Positions 42,556-61,719 of a stretch of 64,000 bases of DNA are shown piece by piece (the first letter of the stretch is position 1; each line of letters opens with the position of its first letter). The position numbers and the translations under genes are program-made. Source of the DNA: a bacterium (GTDB lineage Bacteria > Patescibacteriota > Microgenomatia > Levybacterales > UBA12049); NCBI GenBank assembly GCA_021813145.1, contig JAKALS010000004.1:72594-136593 (forward strand). The letters are read 5' to 3'. A model generated the notes under the pieces. It did no database searches. It was not told the origin of the DNA and worked only from the letters and a program-made list of their open reading frames with translations.

Positions 42556-44001
42556 ATGAGCCTAGAAAGAGAAGGGGGGAGGACGCTATTAATTAATCCT
42601 CCCTATACGGATTATTTTGATTCCGATCATTTTAAGCTTTCAAGACCTGATAGAAATTTATCTGGAGTTAATCTTCCTTTGGGAATAGGTTATATTGCTT
42701 CTTTCCTTCAAGAACGCGGAATTGAAGTTGACGGGCTAGATATGGAAGTGACTCAATCGTCACTTTCTGAAATAGCAGATAGAGTAAATAGAGAGGGAAT
42801 AAGATTTGTCGGTATTACTTCCGTAAGCAGTATTATAGATAAAGCTATCAGAATAGGAACTTATCTAAAAAAAAATACGGATGCCTATGTAGTCTTAGGT
42901 GGGGTTCATGCGACTGCAGAGCCTCAGGAAACAGCGTCTTTGGAAAGTTTTGATGCTGTAGCTGTCGGAGAAGGTGAGTTAACAATGCTTGATTTGGTGA
43001 CGGGATTACCTCCCGAGCAGGTAAGAGGGCTCTTATATAGAAAAAGTGGAGATGTAAAAATAAATCCGCCTCAACCAATTATTGAAGACTTAGATTCGCT
43101 GCCTCCTCCGGCGATAAACTTATTCCCTTTTGATCAATATAGGCCAAGCTTACATAGAGATTTGGATCCATCAATAGATCAGCCTTATTATACAGTAATT
43201 TCGTCTAGGGGATGTCCATACAGTTGTAGGTTTTGCTACTCCAAGGGAGTTTTTTCGTATAGAGTAAGAGATAGAAGTATAGGTAATGTAGTGGATGAAA
43301 TCGAGTCTTTCGCAAGAGAAAGAGGAAGAACTAAGGTAATGTTCTATGATGATACGTTTTCCTATGATAGGGCAAGAACTTTAGAGTTTTGCAATGAGGT
43401 AGGCCAAAGAAATCTAGATATTGTTTGGGGATGTAACACGAGGGTGGATAGAGTAACGCCGGAGATTTTAGCGGAAATGAGGAAAAGAGGATTAAAAAGA
43501 GTTTATGTTGGCGTAGAATCAGGCAATGATGCAATTTTAAAGCAGATGATGAAGGGGCTCACGAAAGATAAGGTTAGAAAGGGATTAGCAATTATGGCGG
43601 ATTCGGGTGTTGAAGTATCTGCTAGTTATATCATTGGAGTTCCGGGAGAAACAAGGAAGACTATTGAAGAAACGATAGCCTTTGCTATTGAAAATAATAC
43701 TGACTATGCTCATTTTTATACATTTACGCCTGACCCCGGATCTCCATATTACGTAGATTTGAAGTCGAGAGGAATCATAAAACCTTATGACTGGCTTAGC
43801 TACGGTCAAATGATTAGAAAAGGCACAGAGGCATTAGGCGAGAGAATTGATTGGGCAGAGCTACTCGAGTATACTAGAGAGGCGTATAGGAGATATTACT
43901 CTAGACCTGAATATCGTAGAATGAGAGAAAGGAAATTAAAAACTCCCTTGGAGCATTATCAAATGGAACTTTTAATAAATGAATATTCTGGAAATTTATA
44001 A
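42556..44001 (+). CDS. B12-binding radical SAM (class B) enzyme
   Basis: N-terminal cobalamin-binding Rossmann domain ('VNLPLGIGYIASFL'), CxxxCxxC 'CPYSCRFC', 481 aa. Confidence 0.85.
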   Translation: MSLEREGGRTLLINPPYTDYFDSDHFKLSRPDRNLSGVNLPLGIGYIASFLQERGIEVDGLDMEVTQSSLSEIADRVNREGIRFVGITSVSSIIDKAIRIGTYLKKNTDAYVVLGGVHATAEPQETASLESFDAVAVGEGELTMLDLVTGLPPEQVRGLLYRKSGDVKINPPQPIIEDLDSLPPPAINLFPFDQYRPSLHRDLDPSIDQPYYTVISSRGCPYSCRFCYSKGVFSYRVRDRSIGNVVDEIESFARERGRTKVMFYDDTFSYDRARTLEFCNEVGQRNLDIVWGCNTRVDRVTPEILAEMRKRGLKRVYVGVESGNDAILKQMMKGLTKDKVRKGLAIMADSGVEVSASYIIGVPGETRKTIEETIAFAIENNTDYAHFYTFTPDPGSPYYVDLKSRGIIKPYDWLSYGQMIRKGTEALGERIDWAELLEYTREAYRRYYSRPEYRRMRERKLKTPLEHYQMELLINEYSGNL

Positions 44002-45565: not shown

Positions 45566-46054
45566 GTGGAAGTCAATGCTACGACAGAGAAAATAATTAA
45601 ATTATTAAAAGATAATAAGATTTGGTTCGAAATGCATGAGCATGCCCCAGTCAGAACCTCTGAAGAGGCAGCCAAATTAAGAATCGGATATACTCTACAT
45701 CAGGGCGCAAAAGCTTTAATTCTTCACATCGATGATGGTCAAAAAAAGCGGTTTTTAATGTGCGTTTTGCCTGCCGATAAAAAGATCGACAACAATAGAT
45801 TAAGGCAGATTTTACAAACTAAAGACATTCGTTTCGCAACCATCGATGAAGTAGAAATAGTCACAAATGGAGTAAAAATCGGAGGCGTTCCTCCATTTGG
45901 GAATTTATTTACTGTAGAAACTATTGTAGATAACGAACTGCTTACTAACGAGACCATAGTTTTCAATGCAGGAGATAGAAGAATCACTATTGCGATGAAA
46001 GCTAAGGACTACATTTTTCTTACAAAACCTAGGCTGGAGTCTTTCTGCAAATAG
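45566..46054 (+). CDS. YbaK/ProX-type aminoacyl-tRNA deacylase (trans-editing domain)
   Basis: 'GAKALILH', 'GGVPPFGNLF' motifs of the YbaK/ProRS-editing family. Confidence 0.8.
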   Translation: MEVNATTEKIIKLLKDNKIWFEMHEHAPVRTSEEAAKLRIGYTLHQGAKALILHIDDGQKKRFLMCVLPADKKIDNNRLRQILQTKDIRFATIDEVEIVTNGVKIGGVPPFGNLFTVETIVDNELLTNETIVFNAGDRRITIAMKAKDYIFLTKPRLESFCK

Positions 46055-46069: not shown

Positions 46070-46771
46070 TTAGGTTTTTCTGCTGTAGTATCTTTCTAGT
46101 AATGCTAAGGATAAGATCTCAACAGAATTATAGACTGGAAGCGAATATTCAATTGGAAATACTAAAGGTAATTCTGTGCAAGCAAGCACTATAGCCTCCG
46201 CGCCCTCTGACTTTAATATATCAGCTATTCTTTTTAGGTTATTCATATCTTCACCGGTTGAGGACTCAGAAATAACATTTCTTATTGCCTGTTCTATTAT
46301 TGGAAACTCTTTTTCATCAGGTACTATTACATTTACTTCTTTTTTCTCAAGAGCCTTTTGATAAATAGATGAATTAAGAGTTGATGGGGTGCCTAGTAAC
46401 CCAACTTTCTTAATATTATCTTTTTCAATTTGAGTTACAACCTCATCAACGATAGAAACGAATGGAAAATTAGATATAGATTGTAAATCCTGAAGCATTA
46501 TGTGAGCAGTATTGCAAGCAATTGCGCCACATAGAACATTCAGCTTATTCAGTTCTAAAACTTTTTGTTTCAATATCTCAAGCGCTTCTTTTTCTTTCGT
46601 AGAAGAAGATATGAAATCAGGAACAGGAACAGAATACAAGACAATTTGCGGAAAGTCCTCATTATTTACCGCATGGAATTGTTTGACTGCATTATTAATC
46701 AGCGCCGAGTATAAATACGCAGACGCTTCTGGTCCCATTCCTCCTATAATTGCTATTGGTTTATTTTTCAT
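46070..46771 (-). CDS. Aspartate/glutamate racemase family protein
   Basis: 'KPIAIIGGMGPEAS', 'LCGAIACNTAH', 'IVLACTELP'; start placed at ATG 46771 (the ORF-track extension upstream is probably non-coding). Confidence 0.8.
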   Translation of the reverse strand: MKNKPIAIIGGMGPEASAYLYSALINNAVKQFHAVNNEDFPQIVLYSVPVPDFISSSTKEKEALEILKQKVLELNKLNVLCGAIACNTAHIMLQDLQSISNFPFVSIVDEVVTQIEKDNIKKVGLLGTPSTLNSSIYQKALEKKEVNVIVPDEKEFPIIEQAIRNVISESSTGEDMNNLKRIADILKSEGAEAIVLACTELPLVFPIEYSLPVYNSVEILSLALLERYYSRKT

Positions 46772-46780
46772 ATTAGTCAA

Positions 46781-46831
46781 CAAAAAACCCTTGCAAATTC
46801 TCAAGATGAAATTCTCAAAAACTTGCAAGGG
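46781..46831 (-). terminator. Hairpin (CCCTTGCAA...TTGCAAGGG) followed by a U-run just upstream of the racemase ATG; terminator of the upstream gene or attenuator
   Basis: Minus-strand CCCTTGCAAG-N26-TTGCAAGGG-TTTTTTG. Confidence 0.4.
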
Positions 46832-47014
46832 TCCTGCAAAAGGACTGTGCCACCTTGCTTTGGTCTTATTCATGACGCGCTCCGTTACCGACACACGTTG
46901 CTGACTTTTACGGTTTCGCCTCCGTGACTGATTAAGTCCTGCTCCCCGATCCCAACCATATCGGATCAACGCATTTACTTTCTAAGCGTAGGATACCACA
47001 AAACAGAAATTACG

Positions 47015-47506
47015 TCAAGCAGCTTGGGATGATTCAGGCACAGTCCATTCCTTTAGATCAGTCTCAAATTCTCTTACCAGATTAACTCCTTTTTTGACTG
47101 CATTTGTGCTGTTTGGTAAAGAACTTTCTCCCTGTCCAGTGTATTCAATTAATGCATCTGGGTATCCATGCGTAATTATAGTTGTATCCACATGTACCTT
47201 TCGACCATCTCCCATTAACTCCAACTGTTGCCCTTCCCATATTGGCATAAAATTAATTTCATATAAATGACCGTTGCCGGCGATTATTGGAAAGCTGCTC
47301 CTATTTCCTAAAACAAGCAAGCTTCCATATGTGTCGCTTTGAAGAAATCCGGGAGTTCTAATTAAAGCAGCAATTACAGTATCGATTATGCGACAAGCAT
47401 TATCTAATCTTTCTGATTGAATTAGTTGTCTATTTTCTGTCCCTAGCCATGCATCAAATGCTATAGCGCTTATTTGCTGCTGTACTGCTTCTCTATTTAA
47501 ACTCAT
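47015..47506 (-). CDS. Hypothetical protein (163 aa)
   Basis: Translationally coupled downstream of trpS (4-nt gap); no recognised motif. Confidence 0.5.
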   Translation of the reverse strand: MSLNREAVQQQISAIAFDAWLGTENRQLIQSERLDNACRIIDTVIAALIRTPGFLQSDTYGSLLVLGNRSSFPIIAGNGHLYEINFMPIWEGQQLELMGDGRKVHVDTTIITHGYPDALIEYTGQGESSLPNSTNAVKKGVNLVREFETDLKEWTVPESSQAA

Positions 47507-47510
47507 ACGC

Positions 47511-48680
47511 CTATTTTACCTTAAGAGGTGATCGGATTGGAGTATCAAATATAAATTCCGGTGTTCTTGCTTTTGCCTCTGGCAATTTACCTTGATGATC
47601 AGCGAGATACACCAAGACTTCATCGACTGCTTGAGCCTTACATTCTCCGCACAAAATCTCACCACTACTACATTGCTCAGCAAGCCTGCTATTATCAAAG
47701 TGGTATGTTCTTAATTGATATATAGGACAGATTTCGGGAACTCCTCCATGCTCCCTTTGGAAACTGCCCAAAACACTGCCCCCTGTGTAAGCTGACATAA
47801 TTTTCTTTTTTGCAGTTTTGGGATCATCTGTTAAGAATACCGCGCCTTCTGGTCTGGATGCGGACATTTTTCCTTTTCCATCCAAACCTGCTCCAAATTT
47901 TGTGAATGTTGCTGCAGGCGGAGTAAATCCCTTTTTGCGGGCTGCATCCCTTGCCAATAATATGTACGGATACTGATCAACTCCTACCGGAATTACCGTT
48001 GGTTTTGGCCCCCCAAGTTCTTCATATTGAGGTAAGAGAATTTGTGCTAGTTGAACTGCTCCTCGATAGAAAACCGTACCAGAGTTTTCACCTTCCTCAT
48101 CTTTACCGAATCCAAAAACTCCGAAAATTTTATTTAGGCTTGTGTGTTTTGCGATATCCATAGCGGCATTGTAAAGGTCCGGATAGTCAGAATCTACGAA
48201 TATGTGTGTTTTATCTGGAGAAAAACCCATAGCTATAATGCTTGGAATTACAGATTCGTAAGCAGTTCTTCTAGCCTCACCTAGACTACTAGCTTTACCA
48301 ACAAGATAACTCTCGTCGTTTGTTATGGGAATATATACATCCGCTCCTTGTCTTTGCATCCATAATAATTCGTCGAAGACTTGTTTGTGCCCAAAATGTA
48401 ATGGGCCTGAAGGGTTAAGCCCTGAAACCACAGCCCATGGCTCTCCATTGGCCATTGCGCCAACTACGCTTTCTAAATCTCTATGAGCGAAGGTAACTCC
48501 TAATTCCATTAGTCGACTTGGATCAGGATGATATAACCTAAATCTATCAATAGGTTTTAAATCTAGCTCAGCCATTTTTTGAGGATAATAAGCTAACTCC
48601 TCATCTCGCTTTGCTAATTTAGCTTGATGATCTTGTCTTGAAATTTCTTCTAGTTGTGTTTGTCGTTCAGGTCCTAGCAT
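47511..48680 (-). CDS. trpS: Tryptophan--tRNA ligase, archaeal/eukaryotic type
   Basis: HIGH-type 'GPLHFGH', 'GVDQYPYILLARD', KMSAS variant 'KMSASRPEG'. Confidence 0.75.
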   Translation of the reverse strand: MLGPERQTQLEEISRQDHQAKLAKRDEELAYYPQKMAELDLKPIDRFRLYHPDPSRLMELGVTFAHRDLESVVGAMANGEPWAVVSGLNPSGPLHFGHKQVFDELLWMQRQGADVYIPITNDESYLVGKASSLGEARRTAYESVIPSIIAMGFSPDKTHIFVDSDYPDLYNAAMDIAKHTSLNKIFGVFGFGKDEEGENSGTVFYRGAVQLAQILLPQYEELGGPKPTVIPVGVDQYPYILLARDAARKKGFTPPAATFTKFGAGLDGKGKMSASRPEGAVFLTDDPKTAKKKIMSAYTGGSVLGSFQREHGGVPEICPIYQLRTYHFDNSRLAEQCSSGEILCGECKAQAVDEVLVYLADHQGKLPEAKARTPEFIFDTPIRSPLKVK

Positions 48681-48681
48681 A

Positions 48682-49461
48682 TTATTTAACGGGATATGAA
48701 TTAACTAATGTTCTTAAAAACATTACGGTTTCGTCTATCGCCCTTGGATTGACATTAGTAATGTCATCATCTTTAGTTTGCATTCTGTGCCAAGCTCCTT
48801 CGTGGTAACGCGCTATTACTGCTGCTGCTAAACCCTCTTCTAGAAAGGCTAGATTGTCAGCATTTGGACTATGGTCCCTAAGCTCAACAGGTACTCCTAC
48901 TTTCTTCCCGTGCTCAATGAGAAGCTTATTTAGTTCAGCTGTGTTATCAAGTCTTCTTCCAGTTGTTTGGAAAACCGACATATTTCCTTTTCCAACTGCT
49001 TGAATTGTAATCGCCCCATCGTAAGTATCGATAAATTCCGTTTCATCTGTTATTAAATGTTGTACAAATAGTTTTGACCCTGGAACAAAATCAGGATTTC
49101 TTCGTTGTCTAGTAGCTAAATCCGGATCTAATCCAGCATCAAAATACACCAACCTGATATTAACCGGCAATTTTGCCTTCTGTAAGTGTTCGCTCAACTT
49201 TAATAGCGTGACTACGCTGCTTCCATTGTTGTTGGCGCTTGGTAATGTACCAAAAGTATCGTAATTCGCAGTTACCCAAAGATCATGCGGTTTGTCGTAA
49301 TCAAAAGCAACTACAAGATGTCTGTCAACCCCGCGGGGAGATGTAATTTCGTAAACACGAGGAATTATGCCAAGCTTTCTAGTCTCTTCATCCAAATAAT
49401 TTGCCCGGCCTTCGGTGCCTTGCCCCATTAAACTTTTTAAACTCTTATAGGTTTCTATCAT
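48682..49461 (-). CDS. Hypothetical protein with weak M28-peptidase-like core but substituted metal ligands
   Basis: 'WVTANYDTFGTLPSANNNGSSVVTLLKLSEHL' parallels the M28 'AHYDS...GA.DNASG' block with His->Asn and Asp->Asn. Confidence 0.35.
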   Translation of the reverse strand: MIETYKSLKSLMGQGTEGRANYLDEETRKLGIIPRVYEITSPRGVDRHLVVAFDYDKPHDLWVTANYDTFGTLPSANNNGSSVVTLLKLSEHLQKAKLPVNIRLVYFDAGLDPDLATRQRRNPDFVPGSKLFVQHLITDETEFIDTYDGAITIQAVGKGNMSVFQTTGRRLDNTAELNKLLIEHGKKVGVPVELRDHSPNADNLAFLEEGLAAAVIARYHEGAWHRMQTKDDDITNVNPRAIDETVMFLRTLVNSYPVK

Positions 49462-49463
49462 AT

Positions 49464-50474
49464 TTAAAATCTTGACAGTACGTAAGTTTCCACATCTCTT
49501 CCAACTCTTTCTTTTAAGACATTTGGCGAAATTTGTCCATCATAAAACTCATCAGCTAGTGTTATTGGAGAATCAACGCCTTCCAATCTTCTTTTTGCCA
49601 TTTCGCAAATAATTCCGATATCTAAGGTTGGATTGGGAACCGCGGGGTTAGTAGAAATGAATGAAGCACTTATTAATTCTCTAACATAATCAGGGTCTGA
49701 TCTTTCGATTACTATTCTATTTCTTTGCAAACGTTTGCTTCCTGTTTTATATGCAGTAATCCCATGATCTTCAATGCCCTCATTGGCAAAGAAATATGAC
49801 CAATTCATTCCTAGCGGAAAAGTTGGGGTTAGAAAAAGAGACATTAAGCCTTTTTGCCCACTTCTTTCAGCAACTCTTCTGGCGACATCGTCATACAGAT
49901 CTTCTCTTGGTGGCCCAACTTTTATGTCAAGCCCCAAGATTGTGGCGATTTCGTCAAAAGAATACATGAATCCTTTTACTCTTTCAATTTCTACTTTCGA
50001 TTCAGGAACTGTTTTCTCTACTGCCGCCATAAGTTCTGGATCTGCATTGCAGGTTTGCATAACCCTGTCTCTTTCGGCAACAAATTCTGGTGAATCTATA
50101 TATTCACTCATTCTTACAACTCTCAGTCCCGTATTGTATACGTCATTAACTTTACTTACGAATTTTGCTCTTTGATCGCCAAGAAGCATATAATAATCCT
50201 GATGTTCCTGTCCAACATTTCTACAAGCTGCGGTGTCTGCAACTAAAATTGAAGGATCAACGTTAGAACCCTCCTGTTTTAAGGCTTCTGCAAGATACGA
50301 AACGAACAAGTAATATTTAAGACTATCGATCGGATGACCTTTATCATCATATGTCTCTCCGTAGAAAAGTCTCATAGGCTCAGGAGCAATGCTGCCCGCT
50401 CTACTCCTTATGTCTTCTGCTGAAGGAGCTTGCGAAACTAAACCACGTGTCGATAGTAATCTTTCAATATTCAT
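49464..50474 (-). CDS. Class I aminoacyl-tRNA-synthetase-like paralog (TrpRS/TyrRS-like Rossmann core, degenerate motifs)
   Basis: 336 aa; 'KTGSKRL' in the KMSKS position, 'ILVADTAA' block; adjacent to trpS. Confidence 0.35.
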   Translation of the reverse strand: MNIERLLSTRGLVSQAPSAEDIRSRAGSIAPEPMRLFYGETYDDKGHPIDSLKYYLFVSYLAEALKQEGSNVDPSILVADTAACRNVGQEHQDYYMLLGDQRAKFVSKVNDVYNTGLRVVRMSEYIDSPEFVAERDRVMQTCNADPELMAAVEKTVPESKVEIERVKGFMYSFDEIATILGLDIKVGPPREDLYDDVARRVAERSGQKGLMSLFLTPTFPLGMNWSYFFANEGIEDHGITAYKTGSKRLQRNRIVIERSDPDYVRELISASFISTNPAVPNPTLDIGIICEMAKRRLEGVDSPITLADEFYDGQISPNVLKERVGRDVETYVLSRF

Positions 50475-50569
50475 ATCCTTTACTATAGGGACGTAATTAT
50501 ACTCCCAACTCTAGTTAATTTCAACCCATCTAGATTGAAAATAAAGATATTAAGCAGTATAATTCTGCC

Positions 50570-51613
50570 ATGGTTAATGAACAATATAGGCCAGAAGTCA
50601 TAAATGCCGAACAAAGACTAGGAATTCACTTTGTCAAACCCGATAGCTATTTGGCTGACAGATTAAATTCTCAAATTGCAATAATTGCTGAAACTTTGAA
50701 TGTTCCCGCTAGTATGCCCGTTATACCAGCAAGGGGATTTATTGATAGGCCTTTATTAACCGGGCAGAGACGTGAGATAGATCAACTTATAGAGCTAGAA
50801 TATGCTAATGATGCTGTAGACTTGCAAGATGGATTAACGGCAATTCCTGTAAGAGAAAATGGCGAACGAATGGTACATTTACCTACGCTATTTGAAAGAG
50901 ACAGAATTCCTCTAAGTTTATCATCGCTTCCGTTTCATGAGGCTTGTGGAGAATGGGCGGGAAAAGAAAGGGTATTCTGGGCAAGACAGCAAGTTGCAGA
51001 ACATTTATTAAGAGCAGGAATAGCATTAGATAAGTTAGATATCGTTTTGCATATTGAAGATGCTTTTCGTCCCGTTGGGGTTCAAGAAGGACTTTTTCTT
51101 AGAAGAGCGAAAATGATACTTCAGGAACATCCTGAATGGATAGTTAACTGGGATAAAGTTTGGGCAGAAGCAAGAAGCAAAACAGCCATAACTCCCTTAA
51201 TGGCAGGTCATAAGTCAGGCGCTGCGTTAGACATAACGTTACGAAAGAAATCTAATGGGGAACCTCTATCTATAGGGAACAAATATCCCGAAGGTGGAGC
51301 TAAGGTTGCATTACGTTATCCATATGTTACTCAAGAAGAATGGGCTGCGCGTCAGTTATTCGTCCGCACCATGGAAATGGCAGGTTTACGAAGATATCCA
51401 TATGAAACTTGGCATATCTCATACGGTGACTTGTCTGCGGGTATTTCAGCTGATTCTGATACGGAAATAACGTCGGGTTACGAAGCAATGTACGGTCCTA
51501 TTGAGGGCTTCAACTCTAATGGTGAAGTAATTCCTTACTCTACAGATACGTACAATCAACCATTCTATTCGCAGTTAGAATTACTGGATATAATAAAGAG
51601 GGAAGGTAGATAG
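50570..51613 (+). CDS. M15-family D-Ala-D-Ala dipeptidase-like (VanX-like) zinc peptidase
   Basis: 'HKSGAALDI' (SxHxxGxAxD-type) and 'ETWHISYGD' (ExxH) metal motifs in the C-terminal half. Confidence 0.6.
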   Translation: MVNEQYRPEVINAEQRLGIHFVKPDSYLADRLNSQIAIIAETLNVPASMPVIPARGFIDRPLLTGQRREIDQLIELEYANDAVDLQDGLTAIPVRENGERMVHLPTLFERDRIPLSLSSLPFHEACGEWAGKERVFWARQQVAEHLLRAGIALDKLDIVLHIEDAFRPVGVQEGLFLRRAKMILQEHPEWIVNWDKVWAEARSKTAITPLMAGHKSGAALDITLRKKSNGEPLSIGNKYPEGGAKVALRYPYVTQEEWAARQLFVRTMEMAGLRRYPYETWHISYGDLSAGISADSDTEITSGYEAMYGPIEGFNSNGEVIPYSTDTYNQPFYSQLELLDIIKREGR

Positions 51614-51617
51614 CTTC

Positions 51618-52775
51618 TTATTTTACTTCAAAAACAACAGTATCTTTTGTAATACGGTCCATTTTTTCTAGATCAACATCCCACCCTCTACCAGGTGTAG
51701 TTGGCACTTTAATATATGCTCCATCAGGTTCTCTTTCCATTGGAGCAACACATGGATCGTCACCTTCTTTAAAATATGCGGAAGTGCCTGAGATATCAGA
51801 TGGTAACGTAACTCCTGGATGCGCAGCCATCGCTAAAGAATGAGCCTTCCCAGGAGAAGTTAGCTCAACCATTCCGCCAACCCATGTGTCAACTCCTCTT
51901 TCTTGACAGTAATCAATCATTTTTCGAGCAATGTCTAATCCTCCAACTCTAGTCACCTTAATGTTAATTATGGGGATTCCTCCTTCTACTGCTTGTTCCA
52001 AATCGCTCATTGTATGAATACTCTCATCTAAGCAAATTCTTCCTGGAACACTATTTACATTAAATTCTTGTTGTAATTGTGTATGAGCAACGATATCGTT
52101 ATATGCCAATGGCTGTTCCATCATTAGCAAATCAAGATTTCCATATCCAATAAGTAATCTTTTGTGCTCTGGATTATGTAAATCAAAAGATGAGTTAGCG
52201 TCAATCATGAGTAGTACATCTGGATATGCTGTTCGAATACGTGCAATCTTATCCAAATCTCCTTGACTTGGCCCAACTTTTATTTTTATACGACGGTATT
52301 TATCTTTTGAAATTCTTTCTGCAATTTGTTCTAACGAATCGTTTTTTGAAATGCTTACTCCTACCTCGACTTGAGGCTTTTCTCCTCCCAATAATGTGAA
52401 CAAAGGAACATCCTTATCGATTGCTTCAGCATCCAAGTATAGATTAGCGAATGCCGCTTGGAAAATTGGATGATCCATAAGAAATCCTAGAGATCGAACA
52501 GCTTCGCGTGGATCATCGAAATCTTTGCCTACAAATTTACTTCCAATTTCATTTAGTAATGCCCATGCCTCTATGGTTGATTCAGACCCATAAACAGGGA
52601 ATTTAGTAGTATCTATTGAACTCCAAGCTTCAACTCCATTTGAAGTTTGCCCACGCAGAGCAATCATATCTCTTTTGGGACCAATATCTCGAGGTAAACC
52701 ATCAACGTCACCAAGAGAAAAGACATGTCTCATCTCCGGCGTGATGTATCGTGCTTCTAAACGTTCGAATTTCAT
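51618..52775 (-). CDS. Enolase-superfamily MR/MLE enzyme (dipeptide epimerase / o-succinylbenzoate synthase-like)
   Basis: 'IKIKVG', 'LMIDANSSF', 'MMEQPL', 'LDESI' metal/base motifs. Confidence 0.8.
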   Translation of the reverse strand: MKFERLEARYITPEMRHVFSLGDVDGLPRDIGPKRDMIALRGQTSNGVEAWSSIDTTKFPVYGSESTIEAWALLNEIGSKFVGKDFDDPREAVRSLGFLMDHPIFQAAFANLYLDAEAIDKDVPLFTLLGGEKPQVEVGVSISKNDSLEQIAERISKDKYRRIKIKVGPSQGDLDKIARIRTAYPDVLLMIDANSSFDLHNPEHKRLLIGYGNLDLLMMEQPLAYNDIVAHTQLQQEFNVNSVPGRICLDESIHTMSDLEQAVEGGIPIINIKVTRVGGLDIARKMIDYCQERGVDTWVGGMVELTSPGKAHSLAMAAHPGVTLPSDISGTSAYFKEGDDPCVAPMEREPDGAYIKVPTTPGRGWDVDLEKMDRITKDTVVFEVK

Positions 52776-52781
52776 AATAAT

Positions 52782-53408
52782 TTAGTAATCTAAGTTAAAT
52801 ACTAGAGCATATGCATCTCCAACATTGTAATTTAGTTCACTGTATGAAATCCTATCGTTTTGGGGAATATCCGCATACATAGGCCGTCCGTATAACCCTG
52901 GAAGCAAGACTCTCTCATCCATAGAATAACCTCTGATTTCCCCTGATTGCTTCATTGCTTCGAGTGTATTTTTAATACCGGCTTCAATATTTGGATTTTG
53001 CGTCTCGGTAAACACAATGTGATAACCTCTTTCAATTCCCCTTCTTACTCTTTCCTGAGACATTTTTCTATAAAGACCTGTTTTTTGCGCTTCACCTTCA
53101 ATTAAAACGCCTGCAAGGTAAACGCCCATTCCTTCTGGAAATGGAAAGTTAACCCCTGGAATTCCGTCAAAGGCATCTTTTGGAGATTTAAATTCTATTG
53201 AATCGAAACCAACAGCTCTTCCAGAGCCTTCTGCGACATAAATACTTAAAACATCTCCTTTTAAATGCCTTCGAACATCATCATCTGTGGGGACAAAACC
53301 GCTGGTATTTCGGCAGGCAAGAATTTGTTGAATTGTATCTTCGCCAATTCTCGGATCTTCACAACCAGCGACACTTTCTAAACGTCTAGCAATTATATTT
53401 TCTATCAT
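52782..53408 (-). CDS. Hypothetical protein (208 aa), possibly GNAT-like fold
   Basis: Strong SD AAAGGGAGGTGA; only a weak 'EGEAQKTGLYRKM' resemblance to GNAT motif A. Confidence 0.4.
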   Translation of the reverse strand: MIENIIARRLESVAGCEDPRIGEDTIQQILACRNTSGFVPTDDDVRRHLKGDVLSIYVAEGSGRAVGFDSIEFKSPKDAFDGIPGVNFPFPEGMGVYLAGVLIEGEAQKTGLYRKMSQERVRRGIERGYHIVFTETQNPNIEAGIKNTLEAMKQSGEIRGYSMDERVLLPGLYGRPMYADIPQNDRISYSELNYNVGDAYALVFNLDY

Positions 53409-53510: not shown

Positions 53511-53852
53511 TTAACCTTTTCTCTCACCACCTCTGTAGACATAGGTATCAATTTCATTACAAAGCCTTGGCCAAAGAACATCGATAATTCGTTCATGTAC
53601 CATGCCAACGTTTATATCAAGTTCTTGCATTGTCTGTTGCCCTTGTTCAGTAGTCATCTTATACAAAGGACTATCTCCCTTAATCCTGCTTCCACTAAAA
53701 GTCCATTCTATTTCAGTTCTTTGTTGATCACTTAGTCTAAATAAGTCAATCCCAGCTAATTCTAATGTAACCGGTTTATCTACGGGAATCTCTGTTGCAG
53801 CTAATATTGCTTTCACTTTCTCTGTGGGAGTTAACTCTGCAAAAGCTTTCAT
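53511..53852 (-). CDS. Hypothetical protein (113 aa)
   Basis: ORF only. Confidence 0.45.
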   Translation of the reverse strand: MKAFAELTPTEKVKAILAATEIPVDKPVTLELAGIDLFRLSDQQRTEIEWTFSGSRIKGDSPLYKMTTEQGQQTMQELDINVGMVHERIIDVLWPRLCNEIDTYVYRGGERKG

Positions 53853-53920: not shown

Positions 53921-54415
53921 CTATTTCTTAAACTTATACCTTTTTGTAAATACCACCAAGAGGACGACAAAAATTAAGGAAGCACCTAGTGGTGGGAGAA
54001 TATATAATATTAAGCCCAAAATATTATAAGCAAATGAAATAATACCATTCATCAAATCAACGATCTTCGAAAAGATGCCATACATCCCAAGGATTAATAG
54101 CAACCATATAAATTTTTTAGTTTCTTTATACAACTTTCGATCCCTAAGTTTTCTTACAGCTAAGATATATAAACCTAGCCAAAGCTTAAGCCGATACAAT
54201 ACAGCTCCTACTGTTACATAAACCAATGCGCTGTAAAATGCACGATCTAATAAATTAGGGGCTGAAATTGGTTCTATCTTTTTCCACACAAAACTTTTTC
54301 CTAGAGTGAAAGACCACAATAATAATGCTAAAACAAAAAGAACAGTAAATAATGCAGACGCAATAATTCCCCTTTCACGTTTTATAAGAATTTTTTTATA
54401 CCATAACATAATCAC
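53921..54415 (-). CDS. Hypothetical integral membrane protein
   Basis: 164 aa, four or five TM helices. Confidence 0.5.
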   Translation of the reverse strand: MIMLWYKKILIKRERGIIASALFTVLFVLALLLWSFTLGKSFVWKKIEPISAPNLLDRAFYSALVYVTVGAVLYRLKLWLGLYILAVRKLRDRKLYKETKKFIWLLLILGMYGIFSKIVDLMNGIISFAYNILGLILYILPPLGASLIFVVLLVVFTKRYKFKK

Positions 54416-54441: not shown

Positions 54442-55182
54442 TTACTTTAAATATTCGTTTATATCCATAGCGGGGACAGTTCCTAATTTTTGAAGCTCAA
54501 TAATTAAATTCATAAAAAAATTTACCAAGCTATTTTCATCCTTTTGCAAAGCCAATTGATAAGGTTTTTTATTCTCATCCCAAGGATGATAACTTGAAAG
54601 TTTAAAATATGTTTTTCCTATCAATGAACAACCAAAATTTATTACTTTATTTTCATCGGAATTAACTACTATTCCTTGCATCTCCTTTGACAATGAGCCG
54701 TCAAAAGCTAAAATACCTGCAAGTACTCTAGCGTGTTTCTTAGGAGGATATACCCCTCCCGCATGAGGAATTTCAATACTCGTTCTTTTAAGTTTTCTTA
54801 CGGACTCTGCTTTATTTTGAGCGTAGGTTATATTCTCTTTACTTAAATCCTGTTTTACCTCAATAACTGCATACACACATTCAGCAGGAACATATGTAAC
54901 ACCATTTTGTCTCAATATAAATGGTGAATATTGCCTATCAAAGATGACAATGTCAATCTGGTCACTTATTTCTCCGTCGGAGTCAATAACGAAAGCTTTA
55001 TCCGCACAGTACCTTTTAGGAAGATAGGTTGAAAGCATTTCTATCCACTCTAATTCTGTGAAATCACCTTTCGCCGTAGAATGTCCAACAACAGATCTGT
55101 TAAAAGTTAGCTTAGCTTCCATTTGCGTTTGTAAACCTTTAAATATTTCTTTTGTATTGATTTTGTTTTTTGCTTTTACCAT
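54442..55182 (-). CDS. PD-(D/E)xK nuclease-fold protein (candidate effector)
   Basis: 'QIDIVIFD...ECVYAVIEVKQ' gives D...E-x-K spacing of restriction-endonuclease-like nucleases; start overlaps the nucleotidyltransferase stop by 7 nt. Confidence 0.5.
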   Translation of the reverse strand: MVKAKNKINTKEIFKGLQTQMEAKLTFNRSVVGHSTAKGDFTELEWIEMLSTYLPKRYCADKAFVIDSDGEISDQIDIVIFDRQYSPFILRQNGVTYVPAECVYAVIEVKQDLSKENITYAQNKAESVRKLKRTSIEIPHAGGVYPPKKHARVLAGILAFDGSLSKEMQGIVVNSDENKVINFGCSLIGKTYFKLSSYHPWDENKKPYQLALQKDENSLVNFFMNLIIELQKLGTVPAMDINEYLK

Positions 55183-55967
55183 ATAACAGGCGACAAATTT
55201 CCCGTAAGATAAATCGATGTTAAACTACTCGCCGCTTCATTTTTTATTTTAGCTTTTTCTACTTGCGTTAATTCTTCAGATACTTCGTTTCCTAGATTTG
55301 AGGGATCGAGAATAACTTTATCTTCAAAATCATTTGCAAGATAAGTCATTATATCAATAAAATTTTGTGAGGGGCTTCTCGAATAGGATTTTCCGCTTAA
55401 AGCTTCAATAACAGACAACTCTAAATAAAAGGATGGAAAATCTAAGCTCCATAATTTTCTCCAAATTTTCAAAGCTTTGATGTCGGAAATCCTACCTGAA
55501 TTTGCAACGTAACTTATATGTTCATCTATATTTGTTTTCGTCCATGTACCTGGTTTTCTTTTCCAAATAGAGTGATCAGCACTATTAAGAGACTGCTCAA
55601 CCCCTGCTACTAAATCAATTTTGTATCCTGAATGATTTATGCCGATGGAAACATTTTGTTCTCTTACGGAATATCCGGCACCATTAAATCTATTTTTTAA
55701 AGTTGTATATACCTGTTGTAATGTATTACAGGTACTAACAGACGGATTTAGCGAAATGAAATAATCTATGTCAGTTGTACCCGTTATACCAGTCCCTTTT
55801 GCTAAAGATCCCGATAGTTTTAATTCATACTCGTGTCCATTTGCCCAAGAAAGTATATGTATATTCAATTCATTTCCTATTTGAATAACATCATAAGTGA
55901 CATTTGGCGAATGACTTAAAACAACGCTGTTTATGTAATTATCGCTTGCAGATATGTCTAAATTCAT
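55176..55967 (-). CDS. Minimal Pol-beta-superfamily nucleotidyltransferase (SMODS/CD-NTase-like)
   Basis: 'LSGSLAKGTGITGTTDIDYFISL' (GS...DxD) plus third acidic 'YKIDLVAG'; helical C-terminus 'ISDIKALKIWRKLWSLDFPSFYLELSVIEAL'. Confidence 0.6.
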   Translation of the reverse strand: MNLDISASDNYINSVVLSHSPNVTYDVIQIGNELNIHILSWANGHEYELKLSGSLAKGTGITGTTDIDYFISLNPSVSTCNTLQQVYTTLKNRFNGAGYSVREQNVSIGINHSGYKIDLVAGVEQSLNSADHSIWKRKPGTWTKTNIDEHISYVANSGRISDIKALKIWRKLWSLDFPSFYLELSVIEALSGKSYSRSPSQNFIDIMTYLANDFEDKVILDPSNLGNEVSEELTQVEKAKIKNEAASSLTSIYLTGNLSPVIW

Positions 55968-56013: not shown

Positions 56014-56205
56014 TTATCTTCCGTGACCAGCTTTATTGTGAGCTCGTCTGGAAATTACATATTCTTCTCCACTTTTTGGAGTAGGGGGAAATCTTTCTCC
56101 TCGATCAACGGTAACTTCATGTTCCGTTTTTCCACCGCGGGGACCGATTACTCTTGCTTCTCCTGAAAACGGAGATATTTCTCCTGGCTTAAATGTTTTA
56201 GGCAC
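56014..56205 (-). CDS. YjzC-like microprotein (63 aa from GTG; 74 aa if the upstream ATG is used)
   Basis: 'FKPGEISPFSGEARVIGPRGG...DRGERFPPTPKSGEEY' resembles the B. subtilis YjzC family; AAGGCGGG SD; overlaps the last lexA codons. Confidence 0.45.
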   Translation of the reverse strand: MPKTFKPGEISPFSGEARVIGPRGGKTEHEVTVDRGERFPPTPKSGEEYVISRRAHNKAGHGR

Positions 56206-56833
56206 TTTTATCACCCGCCTTAACAACATCAACAACAATTCCTTGTATTAAAAGGTCTTCGAAAACATAGATCGGTTTATTTGCGGGGTTTGACGAAATT
56301 GGCTCAAGGATAATATGTCCATCTCCATTTTTAAGCTTTTTAATTGTCGCATCGTCTCCGATTAAAGCTACAATTATTTGTCCAGGGTTTGCTGTATTTT
56401 GTTTCCTGATTAACACGTAGTCACCGTTATCGATTGTTCTGCCGTTAATATCCGCCTCGTTCATACTATCTCCAACCGCTTTTAAGAAGAAGTAATCATT
56501 TAGCGTAACTTTTATTTTTTTAGATTCGTAGGGAATGTAGGCTTCGATATTTTGAGTAGCAAGAATTGGAGTACCAGCCGCAACGTTTCCCACAAGGGGA
56601 ATGTTTATTTTTTCTCCAGAATAAGAAGGCTGTAAAGATCGGGATTGATTAGGAGTGTGGGAAAGATAATCCTTCTCCTTTAGAGCCTCCACGTGTCTTT
56701 GAACGGCGCTAATATAGTTATGTCCAGAAGCTTTTCTAATCTCTTCAAGAGTTGGAGGTTTACCAAGTTTAATAGTTAAATCTTTTATGATTGTTAAGAT
56801 ATTTCCCTGTTGGGCTGTTAGACTTTTTCTCAT
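56198..56833 (-). CDS. lexA: LexA repressor (wHTH + S24 autopeptidase)
   Basis: N-terminal LexA DNA-binding domain 'LTAQQGNILTIIKDL...PPTLEEIRKASG', cleavage site 'VAAG', Ser/Lys dyad 'GDSM' and 'TIKKL'. Confidence 0.85.
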   Translation of the reverse strand: MRKSLTAQQGNILTIIKDLTIKLGKPPTLEEIRKASGHNYISAVQRHVEALKEKDYLSHTPNQSRSLQPSYSGEKINIPLVGNVAAGTPILATQNIEAYIPYESKKIKVTLNDYFFLKAVGDSMNEADINGRTIDNGDYVLIRKQNTANPGQIIVALIGDDATIKKLKNGDGHIILEPISSNPANKPIYVFEDLLIQGIVVDVVKAGDKSA

Positions 56834-56836
56834 GGT

Positions 56837-56851
56837 TGGTATATAATACCA
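56837..56851. promoter_or_regulatory. Palindromic operator candidate TGGTAT-ATA-ATACCA overlapping divergent -10 elements in the 32-nt lexA / phage-region intergenic gap
   Basis: Perfect 6-bp arms around a 3-nt spacer; minus-strand TGGTATTAT lies 9 nt before the lexA ATG, plus-strand TATAAT 18 nt before ATG 56866. Confidence 0.4.
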
Positions 56852-56865
56852 CTAATAGTGTAAAT

Positions 56866-57582: not shown

Positions 57583-57645
57583 CGGTCTTTATTAAAGCAA
57601 TATAAATCGGTATTCATAGTGCTCTTGATGCCCTAGTATAAGGGT

Positions 57646-60867: not shown

Positions 60868-61073
60868 AATAGGTCAGATAAGGAGACTTTAAGAGCTTTT
60901 GCTATTTTATCAATCGTTTGAACAGGTGGGTTACTAAGACCCCTTTCAATCCTACTAACAGTTGTGTAGTGTAGTCCGACTTTATCAGCCAAATCTTCTT
61001 GGGTCATCTTTTTATCTTTCCTTGCCCTTTTAATCCTTTTTCCTAATTTCTCATTGACTCTATATTTTCTCAT
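60864..61073 (-). CDS. XRE-family (Cro/CI-type) HTH transcriptional regulator
   Basis: 'MTQEDLADKVGLHYTTVSRIERG' canonical HTH_3. Confidence 0.8.
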   Translation of the reverse strand: MRKYRVNEKLGKRIKRARKDKKMTQEDLADKVGLHYTTVSRIERGLSNPPVQTIDKIAKALKVSLSDLF

Positions 61074-61184
61074 AGTAATAAAGTAATGAATCTAAGAATA
61101 AAAATGTATAGCGTCAGACGCTTTATTTAGCCTTGACTTTATGCTTAAATATAAGTAATATGTCATCAATAGGCACGAAAGGAG

Positions 61185-61697: not shown

Positions 61698-61719
61698 GTA
61701 ATAGAATTATTCTATTAAG

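Follow-up and report, generated by a model that had tools for sequence, protein, structure and literature searches.

What does an aminoacyl-tRNA synthetase (aaRS) paralog of class I do beside a TrpRS gene and a set of D-amino-acid genes, and do all of these genes serve one pathway? The question is raised by a gene cluster in the 64-kb stretch of DNA analyzed here (the window). Every open reading frame named in a first-pass annotation of this DNA was found at its coordinates. The core of the cluster is an operon of four genes on the minus strand. It starts with the aaRS paralog of 336 aa (X336, 49464..50474), followed by the genes for a 259-aa M28-fold protein (48682..49461), a 389-aa TrpRS (47511..48680), and, as the last gene, a 163-aa protein (47015..47506). 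The intergenic gaps are 2, 1, and 4 bp, respectively.

The paralog and the TrpRS form a known module. The 336-aa protein is "ORF1" and the 389-aa TrpRS is "TrpRS-A2" of Mukai et al. 2017 (PMC5370408), where the pair was already published and a TrpRS-A was described as the constant neighbor of ORF1. The match to that description consists of ORF1 beside TrpRS-A, the four-cysteine motif of A2, and the traits of A1-type loci (tRNA-Trp with A73, no Trp residues, and a bacterial TrpRS downstream). No later characterization of ORF1/TrpRS-A2 was found in the literature. Among 32 related loci from CPR and DPANN (L005-L036), a TrpRS-A gene follows ORF1 in every informative one, and the homologue lists of the two proteins fall on the same contigs. 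A tRNA-Trp gene adjoins the module in 9 loci, and ORF1 and TrpRS are naturally fused in one or two cases. In P0280 the X domain covers 42-320 and tRNA-synt_1b covers 465-741, and P0251, judged by eye, looks like a truncated version of this fusion. A natural fusion folded without an alignment reached a pLDDT of 34.6. The two-gene module is transferred between ultra-small bacteria and archaea. Canonical TrpRS genes are additionally present in L007, L015, L027, and L030. The window contains no tRNA-Trp and no second TrpRS, so that an "accessory" role of its TrpRS-A2 is deduced from relatives. In L007, the bacterial trpS is followed by a gene for a protein of 555 aa that carries a precomputed Pfam match to Beta_methylindole_red_C, and a homologue of this protein adjoins a methyltransferase in another locus, L038.

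TrpRS-A2 is a complete, motif-intact TrpRS of the archaeal type. It matches Pfam tRNA-synt_1b (127 bits) and TIGR00233 (220 bits, over the cut-off), and within NCBIfam the archaeal-type PRK12285 set fits it best. The HFGH and KMSAS motifs are intact, the four cysteines of the motif C-x18-C-x6-C-x2-C (C318, C337, C344, and C347) are invariant, and the full C-terminal domain is kept.

The sequence of ORF1 gave no Pfam, NCBIfam, or PDB sequence match. Its AlphaFold (AF2) model is of high quality (pLDDT 90.7), archaeal TyrRS came out on top when the model was compared with known structures in Foldseek (TM 0.69), and hhalign aligned ORF1 to Methanocaldococcus jannaschii TyrRS (MjTyrRS) with a probability of 93%. 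ORF1 is thus a full-length homologue of archaeal TyrRS, with a Rossmann fold, CP1, and a C-terminal helical domain, which corrects the 2017 paper with respect to the fold. The first-pass annotation had been right to see a TrpRS/TyrRS-like organization and a class-I paralog beside an archaeal-type TrpRS; the paralog is class-Ic, has lost HIGH, and retains a KMSKS-like loop. Profile similarity between ORF1 and its partner TrpRS-A is absent. A likeness to cyclodipeptide synthases (CDPSs) shows as weak but repeated matches, all under the family thresholds (13.5 bits vs 45). ORF1 matches AlbC (E = 0.006) and three further CDPSs among the PDB sequences, and the hhalign comparison with AlbC gave E = 3e-4. 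Of 49 ORF1 members, 10 match TIGR04539, 10 match archaeal TyrRS, and 6 match Pfam CDPS. Any other family is matched by at most 2 of 49, making TyrRS and CDPS the sole recurring weak matches.

What is left of the active site? MjTyrRS and AlbC served as the references for this comparison, and AlbC residues 73-155 were checked against the PDB match. In the alignment to MjTyrRS, both histidines of HIGH are replaced, and the KMSKS-like loop reads YKTGSKRL (K-x-G-S-K). The Tyr-specific residues are changed as well (Tyr32 to Leu and Asp158 to Thr in MjTyrRS numbering), and Arg190 of ORF1 stands opposite MjTyrRS Glu172, presumably the ribose-binding acid. The TyrRS triad Tyr151/Gln155/Gln173, which we take to bind the alpha-amine, corresponds to Tyr171/Glu175/Glu191 in ORF1, and these residues are invariant or nearly so. 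Tyr171 and Glu175 form a Tyr-x-x-x-Glu arrangement as is typical of CDPSs. The register of a putative nucleophile is ambiguous, as hhalign placed AlbC Ser37 opposite Phe37 of ORF1 and not Thr41. The residues that the ORF1 superfamily conserves are confined to what used to be the catalytic pocket and to the KMSKS-like loop, and no residue of the C-terminal domain is invariant in the superfamily.

The reading that we tentatively prefer, with slightly less than even confidence, is that ORF1 has no adenylation activity of its own and works with TrpRS-A2 on activated tryptophan, the D-amino-acid genes being separate neighbors. An ORF1 that cannot form an aminoacyl-adenylate alone would explain why ORF1 was not seen without a TrpRS-A gene. 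The tight operon and the natural fusions suggest that the two proteins are physically coupled. Several points argue against this reading. TrpRS-A2 is apparently self-sufficient and does not need ORF1 to complete it, the CDPS matches are subthreshold with an ambiguous register at the putative nucleophile, the low-confidence model of the fusion gives no direct sign of a complex, and the K-x-G-S-K loop together with the many invariant basic residues of ORF1 may reflect altered nucleotide binding.

It is unlikely, and yet to be taken seriously, that ORF1 is instead a non-catalytic subunit in an asymmetric heterodimer with TrpRS-A2, the pair serving as an alternative TrpRS under stress or when tryptophan is scarce. 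TrpRS-A2 would then carry out catalysis, and ORF1 would bind the tRNA (anticodon) or stabilize the complex. Such a heterodimer would resemble the double-length TyrRS pseudo-dimer of Leishmania, and 3p0j is among the Foldseek matches of ORF1. Dimerization is obligatory for class-Ic enzymes, in which tRNA binding spans the subunits. The strict pairing, the fusions, the adjacent tRNA-Trp genes, and the loss of HIGH in ORF1 are all consistent with a heterodimer. However, the conservation of ORF1 is strongest in the former active site and not in the C-terminal domain that would read the anticodon, and TrpRS-A2 has its own full C-terminal domain. Moreover, it is not evident that the two would share a dimer interface, because ORF1 is TyrRS-derived and without profile similarity to TrpRS-A. 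Mukai et al. proposed ORF1 as a non-catalytic partner of TrpRS-A and described a trp repressor gene at the head of some bacterial ORF1/TrpRS-A operons (PMC5370408). A repressor in this position suits charging at times of starvation better than a secondary pathway that consumes tryptophan.

How do the D-amino-acid and editing genes relate to this module? A VanX/DdpX-type M15 dipeptidase gene (347 aa, 50570..51613, plus strand; Pfam Peptidase_M15 52.6 bits) diverges from ORF1 across a 95-bp gap, as the first-pass annotation had it. The protein has an extra N-terminal region of ~130 aa and the motifs GHKSGAALD and ETWH, and orthologues at 56-57% occur in L005, L007, L034, and L035. Next, on the minus strand, is an MR/MLE enolase-superfamily enzyme (385 aa, 51618..52775; NCBIfam menC_lowGC_arch 195.4 bits, cut-off 200.65) with the visible motifs KIKV, IDAN, MEQP, LDES, and NIKV. 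Its superfamily had been correctly recognized. However, in the PDB it is closest to N-acylamino-acid racemases (E = 7e-42) as opposed to the dipeptide-epimerase subgroup (E 1e-11 to 1e-14), which places it in the N-acyl/N-succinyl-amino-acid racemase (NSAR)/OSBS subgroup and makes its likening to L-Ala-D/L-Glu epimerases wrong. Located 6 bp away and co-operonic with it is the gene for a 208-aa protein (52782..53408, minus strand). This protein may be an acyltransferase; a GNAT-like nature was not confirmed by any Pfam, NCBIfam, or PDB-profile match. It belongs to a tiny lineage-restricted family (13 clusters in 5.8 billion proteins), most of which share contigs with ORF1, and in L037 a homologue heads a 213-aa/MR-MLE/M20 operon. 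A 113-aa protein (53511..53852, minus strand) has no family match and no homologue in related loci, and its membership in the cluster is uncertain. On the other side of the operon lie an Asp/Glu-type racemase (46070..46771, minus strand, whose start may lie farther upstream, at most at 46969; Pfam Asp_Glu_race 120 bits, TIGR00035 137.6 bits, over the cut-off) and the expected YbaK/ProX-superfamily trans-editing-domain protein (45566..46054, plus strand; Pfam tRNA_edit 93 bits, under the YbaK equivalog cut-off).

The first-pass annotation had joined these genes in one pathway, in which the aaRS paralog would activate or transfer an amino acid and the M15 dipeptidase, MR/MLE epimerase, GNAT-like protein, and racemase would help to make, edit, or recycle D-amino-acid dipeptides or cell-wall peptides. 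The neighbors are indeed found repeatedly next to the module in several CPR genomes. In five of them, ORF1/TrpRS-A2 is accompanied by the M15/MR-MLE/208-aa triad and the racemase, despite an ORF1 identity of 63-69% and local rearrangements. The loci with the racemase next to the module are L005, L007, L017, L033, and L034 (upstream of the cassette in L017), YbaK-like genes are near the module in L033-L036 and fused to bacterial TrpRS in L028-L030, and an MR/MLE gene is directly upstream of ORF1 in the archaeal locus L008. These associations and the CDPS-like features of ORF1 speak for one pathway. However, whereas the ORF1-TrpRS-A pair is kept in all informative loci, the triad stands beside ORF1 in only 5, all from one Microgenomates clade, and most ORF1 loci (those of the archaea and of the A1 type) have none of the M15, MR/MLE, 208-aa, and racemase genes, the archaeal cassettes having an aminotransferase and a chorismate mutase at their flanks instead. 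Conversely, a triad-like cluster in L038 lacks an ORF1 within 9 kb, and in L034/L037 the NSAR-type enzyme and an M20 peptidase make up an operon of their own, similar to an acylase/racemase pathway from D to L. The constant partners of ORF1 indicate tryptophan and tRNA-Trp, not cell-wall amino acids. With the neighbors confined to one clade, the proposal is only partly supported: its components and their recurrence stand, and a single pathway built on the paralog is improbable.

It is just as hard to credit, if not slightly harder, that TrpRS-A2 is an inhibitor-insensitive enzyme for self-resistance, with ORF1 and its neighbors making or detoxifying a Trp-derived TrpRS inhibitor. Producers of indolmycin carry an inhibitor-insensitive TrpRS copy, and in relatives TrpRS-A2 is an extra copy beside a canonical TrpRS. 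The 555-aa protein of L007, whose Pfam match presumably refers to indolmycin chemistry by name, its L038 homologue beside a methyltransferase, and the aminotransferase and chorismate mutase that flank archaeal cassettes point in the same direction. However, no recognizable biosynthetic set accompanies the module, which often consists of just ORF1 and TrpRS (with or without the tRNA) in very reduced genomes of two domains, and Mukai et al. favored Trp metabolism and encoding over antibiotics from the operon structure (PMC5370408). It is very improbable that ORF1 is a stand-alone, highly divergent aaRS, such as a TyrRS variant or an enzyme for a different aromatic or a non-canonical amino acid, with no more than an operon in common with TrpRS-A2: the TyrRS architecture, complete with its C-terminal domain, the K-x-G-S-K loop, and the precedent of TIGN for HIGH in bacterial TrpRS are outweighed by the loss of both HIGH histidines, Arg190 opposite Glu172, the lack of a linked dedicated tRNA apart from tRNA-Trp, and a family (193 homologues, in CPR and DPANN) too rare and patchy for a housekeeping role (135 clusters at 50% identity among 1.84 billion).

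The module in the window would be extended by two further proteins of the same operon. The M28-like protein (Pfam M28 38 bits, cut-off 21.3) bears out the noted replacement of His and of Asp by Asn. Aligned to YwaD (6hc6), TAHYDS becomes TANYDT and GANDNGSG becomes SANNNGSS, and at least two zinc ligands are missing. Its gene is an operon insert between ORF1 and TrpRS-A2 in four loci, and all three orthologues at this position (L009, L010, and L011) keep the substitutions. The 163-aa protein has no family match and no homologue in related loci and is alone in its 90% cluster.

If ORF1 acts on tryptophan activated by TrpRS-A2, its substrate would be Trp-AMP or Trp-tRNA-Trp, and it may transfer or process the tryptophanyl group or control its fate. 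The racemase, the NSAR-type MR/MLE enzyme with its 208-aa partner, the M15 dipeptidase, and the YbaK-like protein would not be steps of this chemistry. As recurrent neighbors in one Microgenomates clade, they would most simply salvage amino acids (from D to L, N-acyl, and dipeptide forms) and proofread tRNA beside the genes that charge tryptophan.

The cluster around the 336-aa synthetase-like protein, referred to here as ORF1 (49464-50474, minus strand), consists of ten open reading frames between 45.5 and 53.9 kb of the window, all of which were confirmed as described in the first-pass annotation. Family scans and motifs identified an Asp/Glu-type racemase (46070-46771, minus), a 389-aa archaeal/eukaryotic-type tryptophanyl-tRNA synthetase (TrpRS) with HFGH and KMSAS motifs (47511-48680, minus), a 259-aa M28-family protein (48682-49461, minus; PF04389 at 38 bits against a cut-off of 21.3, residues 58-248), a 347-aa VanX-type M15 peptidase (50570-51613, plus), and a 385-aa MR/MLE enzyme (51618-52775, minus). 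A 162-aa protein (45566-46054, plus) carries a YbaK-superfamily editing domain (PF04073, 93 bits). It matches this superfamily domain alone and scores below the level of the YbaK Cys-tRNA(Pro) deacylase equivalog (TIGR00011, 68 bits versus a cut-off of 153). The family scans returned no match for ORF1 or for the 163-aa (47015-47506), 208-aa (52782-53408), and 113-aa (53511-53852) proteins, all encoded on the minus strand. The genes for ORF1, the M28-like protein, TrpRS, and the 163-aa protein follow one another with gaps of only 2, 1, and 4 bp, and the racemase gene comes after a 243-bp gap. The M15 and ORF1 genes are divergently oriented, 95 bp apart, and 6 bp separate the 208-aa and MR/MLE genes. 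Base composition is unremarkable throughout the region, and an Rfam scan of 44-55 kb found no T-box, leader, or riboswitch. No defense or phage label was assigned to ORF1 or to the M28-like, 163-aa, 208-aa, and 113-aa proteins because PADLOC and PHROGs gave no matches for these five. Cluster-member names for the window proteins were not on record.

The surroundings of the cluster contain genes of other kinds. A CBASS-type anti-phage system adjoins it (54442-55967, minus, possibly together with 53921-54415) and includes a 263-aa oligonucleotide cyclase (PADLOC, 252 bits) and a 246-aa NucC endonuclease effector (294 bits); a 164-aa membrane protein beside them weakly matches a 2TM effector. Further downstream, Pfam labels in 56198-64000 include a LexA-like repressor, a 438-aa fusion of ParB-N with an N6-N4 methyltransferase, and a weak terminase large-subunit match, which suggests a putative prophage or mobile element. 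A 481-aa B12-binding radical SAM protein is encoded 2 kb from the other end of the cluster (42556-44001, plus), and a fragment 31% identical to it occurs in a related bacterial locus (L028, 10262-10756).

The core of the cluster belongs to a system that Mukai, Reynolds, Crnkovic and Soll published in 2017 (PMC5370408), and is therefore not new as a kind. Their new TrpRS clade, TrpRS-A, comprises an A1 type confined to CPR bacteria and an A2 type bearing a four-cysteine [4Fe-4S]-like motif, and they also reported a TrpRS-A-like paralog. ORF1 was the name given to an always associated, co-evolving protein that is dissimilar in sequence to known proteins. Twelve instances were known at that time. 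TrpRS-A was found to coexist with canonical TrpRS, and a linked tRNA-Trp was mainly a feature of A1-type bacterial operons, which carry tRNA-Trp(A73); A73 was also spoken of in archaea. The function was left open; ORF1 was suggested either to bind to dimers of TrpRS-A or to be part of a heterodimer like that of Leishmania (PMC5370408). In those parts of the later literature that our searches reached, there was no further characterization of ORF1, the term TrpRS-A appeared nowhere else, and citing papers mentioned the system in passing.

The window belongs to this system because an ORF1-family gene without a detectable sequence family shares one operon with a TrpRS that appears to be of the A2 type, and the two genes are adjacent in every informative relative. 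The best NCBIfam models for this TrpRS (TrpRS-A2 hereafter) are the PRK12285 set, and its cysteines C318-x18-C337-x6-C344-x2-C347 are invariant in 28 homologues. Many relatives also show the TrpRS-A-like gene with a second ORF1 gene (ORF1'), a linked tRNA-Trp, and a coexisting canonical TrpRS. Unlike the modules described in 2017, the window operon holds genes for the M28-like and 163-aa proteins, and it has neither a tRNA-Trp nor the TrpRS-A-like/ORF1' pair. The present analysis adds some 190 close homologues, a complete TyrRS fold, a remodeled Tyr/Glu/Glu pocket with other signals resembling cyclodipeptide synthases (CDPSs), natural fusions, and new accessory genes.

ORF1 homologues (n = 193) are typically 334-345 aa long and 56-100% identical among the 120 matches listed. 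All are unnamed and none has a Pfam domain. Taxon labels, available for a few, point to CPR bacteria (Woesebacteria, Daviesbacteria) and to DPANN archaea (Woesearchaeota, Nanoarchaeota). Mean column identity of ORF1 is 69% in a 34-sequence alignment, similar to that of its synthetase partner. An AlphaFold2 model built on this alignment (pLDDT 90.7, pTM 0.91) has five parallel strands alternating with helices, a C-terminal helical bundle, and a poorly ordered loop at residues 220-250. A Foldseek search of the PDB with the model found archaeal TyrRS over nearly the full length (best 2cyb; E = 5e-11, TM 0.69, ~360 columns), while TrpRS and the double-length Leishmania TyrRS were lower in the list. 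The model and these matches show the class Ic architecture of a Rossmann-fold catalytic domain, CP1, and a C-terminal helical domain, the last at residues 261-336 and aligned to the TyrRS C-terminal domain. According to the model, the fold of ORF1 is a complete TyrRS-like fold, Rossmann fold included, which corrects the 2017 statement and model of an ORF1 lacking a Rossmann fold (PMC5370408).

Sequence methods detect the TyrRS kinship of ORF1 only through a broad superfamily alignment (A4; 49 sequences, 24-74% identity). Residues 15-336 of this profile were aligned by hhalign to M. jannaschii TyrRS (MjTyrRS) with 93% probability and E = 3e-7. A narrow ORF1 profile matched MjTyrRS weakly and gave one chance-level match in the PDB (E = 2.1), and the single sequence found nothing there at E ≤ 10. 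The window protein matched neither Pfam tRNA-synt_1b nor the NCBIfam TyrRS and TrpRS models; ORF1' of an archaeal locus (L009) scored 25 bits with PRK08560, against a cut-off of 220. The structural matches and the profile alignment to TyrRS support the earlier description of a synthetase paralog with TyrRS-type organization and a degenerate HIGH motif. ORF1 is not a recent duplicate of TrpRS-A2, because hhalign found no similarity between the narrow ORF1 profile and the TrpRS-A2 profile, and it is not a housekeeping TyrRS, because the family is rare and patchy and lacks HIGH.

ORF1 shares its overall fold and domain order with archaeal TyrRS (2cyb, 1j1u, 7fg6) over the full length, but its active-site motifs differ. 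In the hhalign residue map, H42-L-G-H45 of MjTyrRS, which we take to be the HIGH motif, lies opposite S51-L-K-Y54 of ORF1, with both histidines gone. A search for H-x-G-H in the ORF1 proteins scanned found none. MjTyrRS Tyr32 and Asp158, presumably ligands of the tyrosine hydroxyl, are replaced by Leu36 and Thr178. Among the presumed alpha-amine binders, Tyr151 corresponds to ORF1 Tyr171, whereas Gln155 and Gln173 are replaced by Glu175 and Glu191. Asp68 is conserved as Asp80, and Glu172, which we assume to be the ribose-binding acid, lies opposite Arg190. Like TyrRS, ORF1 has a mobile loop at the position expected for KMSKS: the KMSKS-like Y242-K243-x-G-S246-K247 falls in the low-pLDDT loop, where the hhalign register is uncertain. 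ORF1 further differs from archaeal TyrRS in its rarity, its accessory character, its constant pairing with a TrpRS, and its missing tRNA-synt_1b match.

G39, D43, D80, Y171, G187, E191, Y194, D195, G238, Y242, and R253 are invariant over the ORF1 superfamily, counted across the partners of A1, A2, and A-like TrpRS, and T41, G46, D50, K53, Y54, S123, E175, K185, P188, P220, K243, and S246 are conserved in at least 90%. All of these residues are in the catalytic domain or the KMSKS-like loop and none is in the C-terminal domain. This pattern would be expected of an active or ligand-binding site, and not of a decayed pseudo-subunit that holds the anticodon.

Apart from archaeal TyrRS, the only family recurring among the weak matches of ORF1 is that of the CDPSs (AlbC, Rv2275, YvmC; PF16715, TIGR04539). 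The broad profile found AlbC (E = 0.006) and three more CDPS chains in the PDB ahead of TyrRS (E = 0.6), and an hhalign alignment to AlbC gave E = 3e-4 over residues 33-157. Among the 49 superfamily members, weak matches were to TIGR04539 (10/49), PRK08560 (10/49), and Pfam CDPS (6/49), with any other family matched by at most two. All of these matches were sub-threshold for their families; window ORF1 reached 13.5 bits with TIGR04539, whose cut-off is 45. In CDPSs, Tyr-x-x-x-Glu takes the place of the synthetase Tyr-x-x-x-Gln, and the Y-x-x-x-E of Porphyromonas gingivalis CDPS aligns on ORF1 Y171/E175. In AlbC, Y178 and E182 are presumably catalytic and S37 presumably the nucleophile; the ORF1 counterpart of Ser37 is ambiguous, Thr41 or Phe37 depending on the alignment register. 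ORF1 resembles CDPSs in having a catalytic domain that derives from class Ic and has no HIGH, a Tyr-x-x-x-Glu at the synthetase Tyr-x-x-x-Gln position, weak repeated matches over residues 74-176, and a presumed reliance on a pre-activated amino acid. However, CDPSs are single-domain proteins of ~200-300 aa without an anticodon-binding domain, whereas ORF1 retains the C-terminal helical domain and the KMSKS-like loop. Its scores are far under the cut-offs, its catalytic Ser equivalent is uncertain (Thr41?), and, unlike ORF1, CDPSs have no dedicated synthetase partner.

ORF1 is strictly paired with its TrpRS. In every informative locus compared (28 from GTDB genomes and 4 from metagenome contigs), an orthologue of TrpRS-A2 comes after the ORF1 gene, 53-75% identical in A2-type modules and 40-46% in more divergent ones. 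Likewise, the same long contigs appear in the match lists of both proteins. The M28-like gene lies between the two in the window and in three archaeal loci. Many loci carry a larger cassette, in which a divergent TrpRS-like gene (~460 aa) and a second, distant ORF1 copy (28-31% identical) precede the pair, and several loci carry two pairs. One protein, and apparently a second, joins the partners in one chain. A 778-aa protein (P0280) has an ORF1 domain (42-320) fused to a TrpRS domain (465-741), and a 612-aa protein (P0251) has an ORF1 domain (12-327) followed by an apparent TrpRS start, as read from its sequence. The partner TrpRS is an extra copy in L007, L015, L027, and L030, because these loci also contain a canonical TrpRS, of bacterial type in L007, L027, and L030 and a second archaeal-type one in L015. 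No second TrpRS was found within the 64-kb window. In the archaeal cassette of L009, a gene of the octopine/nopaline-dehydrogenase family (8916-9986; Pfam, 136 bits) lies between the two ORF1 copies.

A tRNA-Trp(CCA) gene directly adjoins the ORF1 gene in nine loci. None was found in the window, whose sole tRNA is a tRNA-Gln at 38304. The linked tRNA is always tRNA-Trp(CCA), and genetic-code expansion through a suppressor or odd-anticodon tRNA was rejected on this ground. The tRNA-Trp genes beside ORF1 in DPANN archaea (L012, 91-164; L014, 9882-9952; L021, 3018-3088; L022, 6875-6945; L023, 7703-7773) have a G1-C72 pair and a G73 discriminator, according to ARAGORN in L012, L014, and L023 and to reading of the sequence in L021 and L022. 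The operon tRNA-Trp of CPR A1-type loci L027, L029, L030, and L031 has A73. The A1-type group (L027-L031) reproduces what was observed in 2017 (PMC5370408): A73 is accompanied by an ORF1, a TrpRS-A1, and a bacterial TrpRS that contain no Trp residue, the bacterial TrpRS being located downstream in L027-L030. The discriminator of the accessory pair may be opposite to the usual one of its host.

How might ORF1 function? From the observed homology, motif changes, pairing, and fusions we infer the following scheme. ORF1 would be unable to adenylate because HIGH is gone and Arg190 lies opposite MjTyrRS Glu172. It would retain an alpha-amine-holding site for an amino acid, made more acidic. With this site and no adenylation of its own, ORF1 would for that reason rely on TrpRS-A2 for activated tryptophan. 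We propose that ORF1, physically coupled to TrpRS-A2, acts on Trp-AMP or Trp-tRNA-Trp. Work on tryptophan activated by TrpRS-A2 would explain why ORF1 is strictly paired and in places fused with this synthetase, why tRNA-Trp is linked, and why the pocket is conserved. An unlikely, more specific version is that ORF1 is a tRNA-dependent tryptophanyl-transferase or peptide-bond former, an intermediate between class Ic synthetases and CDPSs that keeps the anticodon-binding domain and KMSKS-like loop and is fed by a dedicated TrpRS-A/tRNA-Trp pair apart from that of translation. If true, this would be the first natural private synthetase/tRNA pair serving a non-ribosomal reaction.

The main rival explanation is that ORF1 is a non-catalytic heterodimer partner of TrpRS-A2, forming a pseudo-dimer. 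Such a role agrees with the strict pairing and with the trp-repressor-headed operons reported in 2017 (PMC5370408), but is a poor match to the concentration of conserved residues in the catalytic domain of ORF1. A precedent is the double-length TyrRS of Leishmania and Trypanosoma (3p0j), where two class Ic modules cooperate and one lacks the catalytic motifs; the natural ORF1-TrpRS fusions mimic this single-chain layout. However, the trypanosomatid enzyme consists of two TyrRS copies, of which the inactive one is degenerate, whereas ORF1 and TrpRS belong to different families and the "inactive" ORF1 has a highly conserved, remodeled pocket. Folding of the fusion P0280 without an alignment, as a test of the pseudo-dimer, gave an unusable model (pLDDT 34.6, pTM 0.22).

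The M28-like protein that lies between ORF1 and TrpRS-A2 has the M28 fold by its score above the PF04389 cut-off. Its alignment to the aminopeptidase YwaD bore out the substitutions of co-catalytic zinc ligands noticed earlier, a His by Asn66 (TANYDT) and an Asp by Asn (SANNNGSS). Both Asn residues are kept in three archaeal orthologues in the same slot. In a motif comparison, Gly-Leu stands at what we take to be the Glu-Glu position and Gln at that of the second Asp; only the last His is apparently kept. The protein is predicted to be a metal-less M28 fold and is an operon member in a minority of modules.

The first-pass annotation had also proposed that the cluster makes, edits, or recycles D-amino-acid-containing peptides with a synthetase-like activation step. 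This proposal is supported only in part. In the window and in L005, L007, L034/L037, and L035, ORF1/TrpRS-A2 is accompanied by the M15, MR/MLE, and 208-aa genes in one common arrangement, but these three genes are absent from archaeal and A1-type loci, and a related cluster in L038 has no ORF1 within 9 kb. L038 (9001-14478) encodes a 231-aa homologue of the 208-aa protein, two MR/MLE enzymes, a GCS2 carboxylate-amine ligase, and M15, with a tRNA_edit protein in the cluster and an M20 further downstream; it looks like a small peptide- or amino-acid-modifying pathway independent of ORF1. The likening of the MR/MLE enzyme to dipeptide epimerases did not hold, as its nearest PDB entries are N-acylamino-acid racemases (E = 7e-42 versus 1e-11 to 1e-14 for dipeptide epimerases). 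It scores 195.4 bits with TIGR01928 (low-GC OSBS/NSAR), just under the cut-off of 200.65, and has the motifs KIKV, IDAN, MEQP, LDES, and NIKV, which we take to be the K-x-K, the Asp/Glu/Asp metal ligands, and the catalytic Lys. By these signatures it is assigned to the NSAR/OSBS subgroup of the enolase superfamily.

The N-succinylamino-acid racemase operon of Geobacillus kaustophilus combines an acyltransferase, NSAR, and an M20 deacylase for irreversible D-to-L conversion. The window resembles it in an NSAR-type MR/MLE enzyme that is co-operonic with a small upstream protein, and in L034/L037 an M20 peptidase gene comes after MR/MLE. It differs in that the window has no M20, the 208-aa protein has no GNAT match, and an M15 dipeptidase is attached. 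The 208-aa family is tiny, with 13 clusters in all, and most of these share a contig with ORF1; its membership of the GNAT family was unconfirmed because a PDB search with the family profile gave only noise.

Editing and tryptophan-related genes recur near the module. YbaK-like genes are present in the window and in 4/8 other CPR A2-type loci (L033-L036), and racemase genes in six loci (window, L005, L007, L017, L033, L034). A YbaK-like (tRNA_edit) domain is found N-terminal on bacterial-type TrpRS in L028 (4573-6054), L029 (7492-8946), and L030 (13215-14678), the last with Pfam tRNA_edit at 58.9 bits and tRNA-synt_1b at 211.8 bits. In these A1-type Microgenomates loci the bacterial-type TrpRS would contain an editing-type domain of its own, an uncommon feature for this synthetase. 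On the flanks of archaeal cassettes are genes for a class I/II aminotransferase in 8 loci and for a type II chorismate mutase in 6. A ~555-aa protein with a precomputed Pfam label Beta_methylindole_red_C occurs in L007 (7465-9132), where it overlaps the end of a bacterial trpS, and in L038 (5861-7516; 60% identical), where it adjoins a methyltransferase and the triad-like cluster; it is another indole/tryptophan-related neighbor. Near the module, the CPR loci L034 (14285-16957) and L035 (2811-5409) encode an ABC transporter whose substrate-binding protein belongs to PF04392, a family that includes predicted tryptophan (TrpXYZ) transporters. SHMT genes recur in L034 and L036. The D-amino-acid and editing neighbors are read as amino-acid salvage and tRNA proofreading around tryptophan charging in hosts unable to make amino acids, and they may have a direct biochemical link with ORF1.

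ORF1 represents a rare, strongly conserved, and uncharacterized branch of the class I synthetase superfamily that moves between minimal-genome bacteria and archaea; a second TrpRS always goes with it, and a second tRNA-Trp often does. Thr41, Tyr171, Glu175, Glu191, and Lys243/Ser246 are the residues singled out for mutation. Naturally coexisting TrpRS/tRNA-Trp pairs whose discriminator bases are opposite may be useful as orthogonal pairs in genetic-code engineering. The module would be of high interest should ORF1 turn out to be a tRNA-dependent transferase with a TrpRS/tRNA-Trp pair of its own. Its function would reveal either a new way to build or regulate a class Ic synthetase, as a hetero-oligomer with a remodeled pocket, or a new aminoacyl-tRNA-dependent enzyme linking synthetases with cyclodipeptide synthases.
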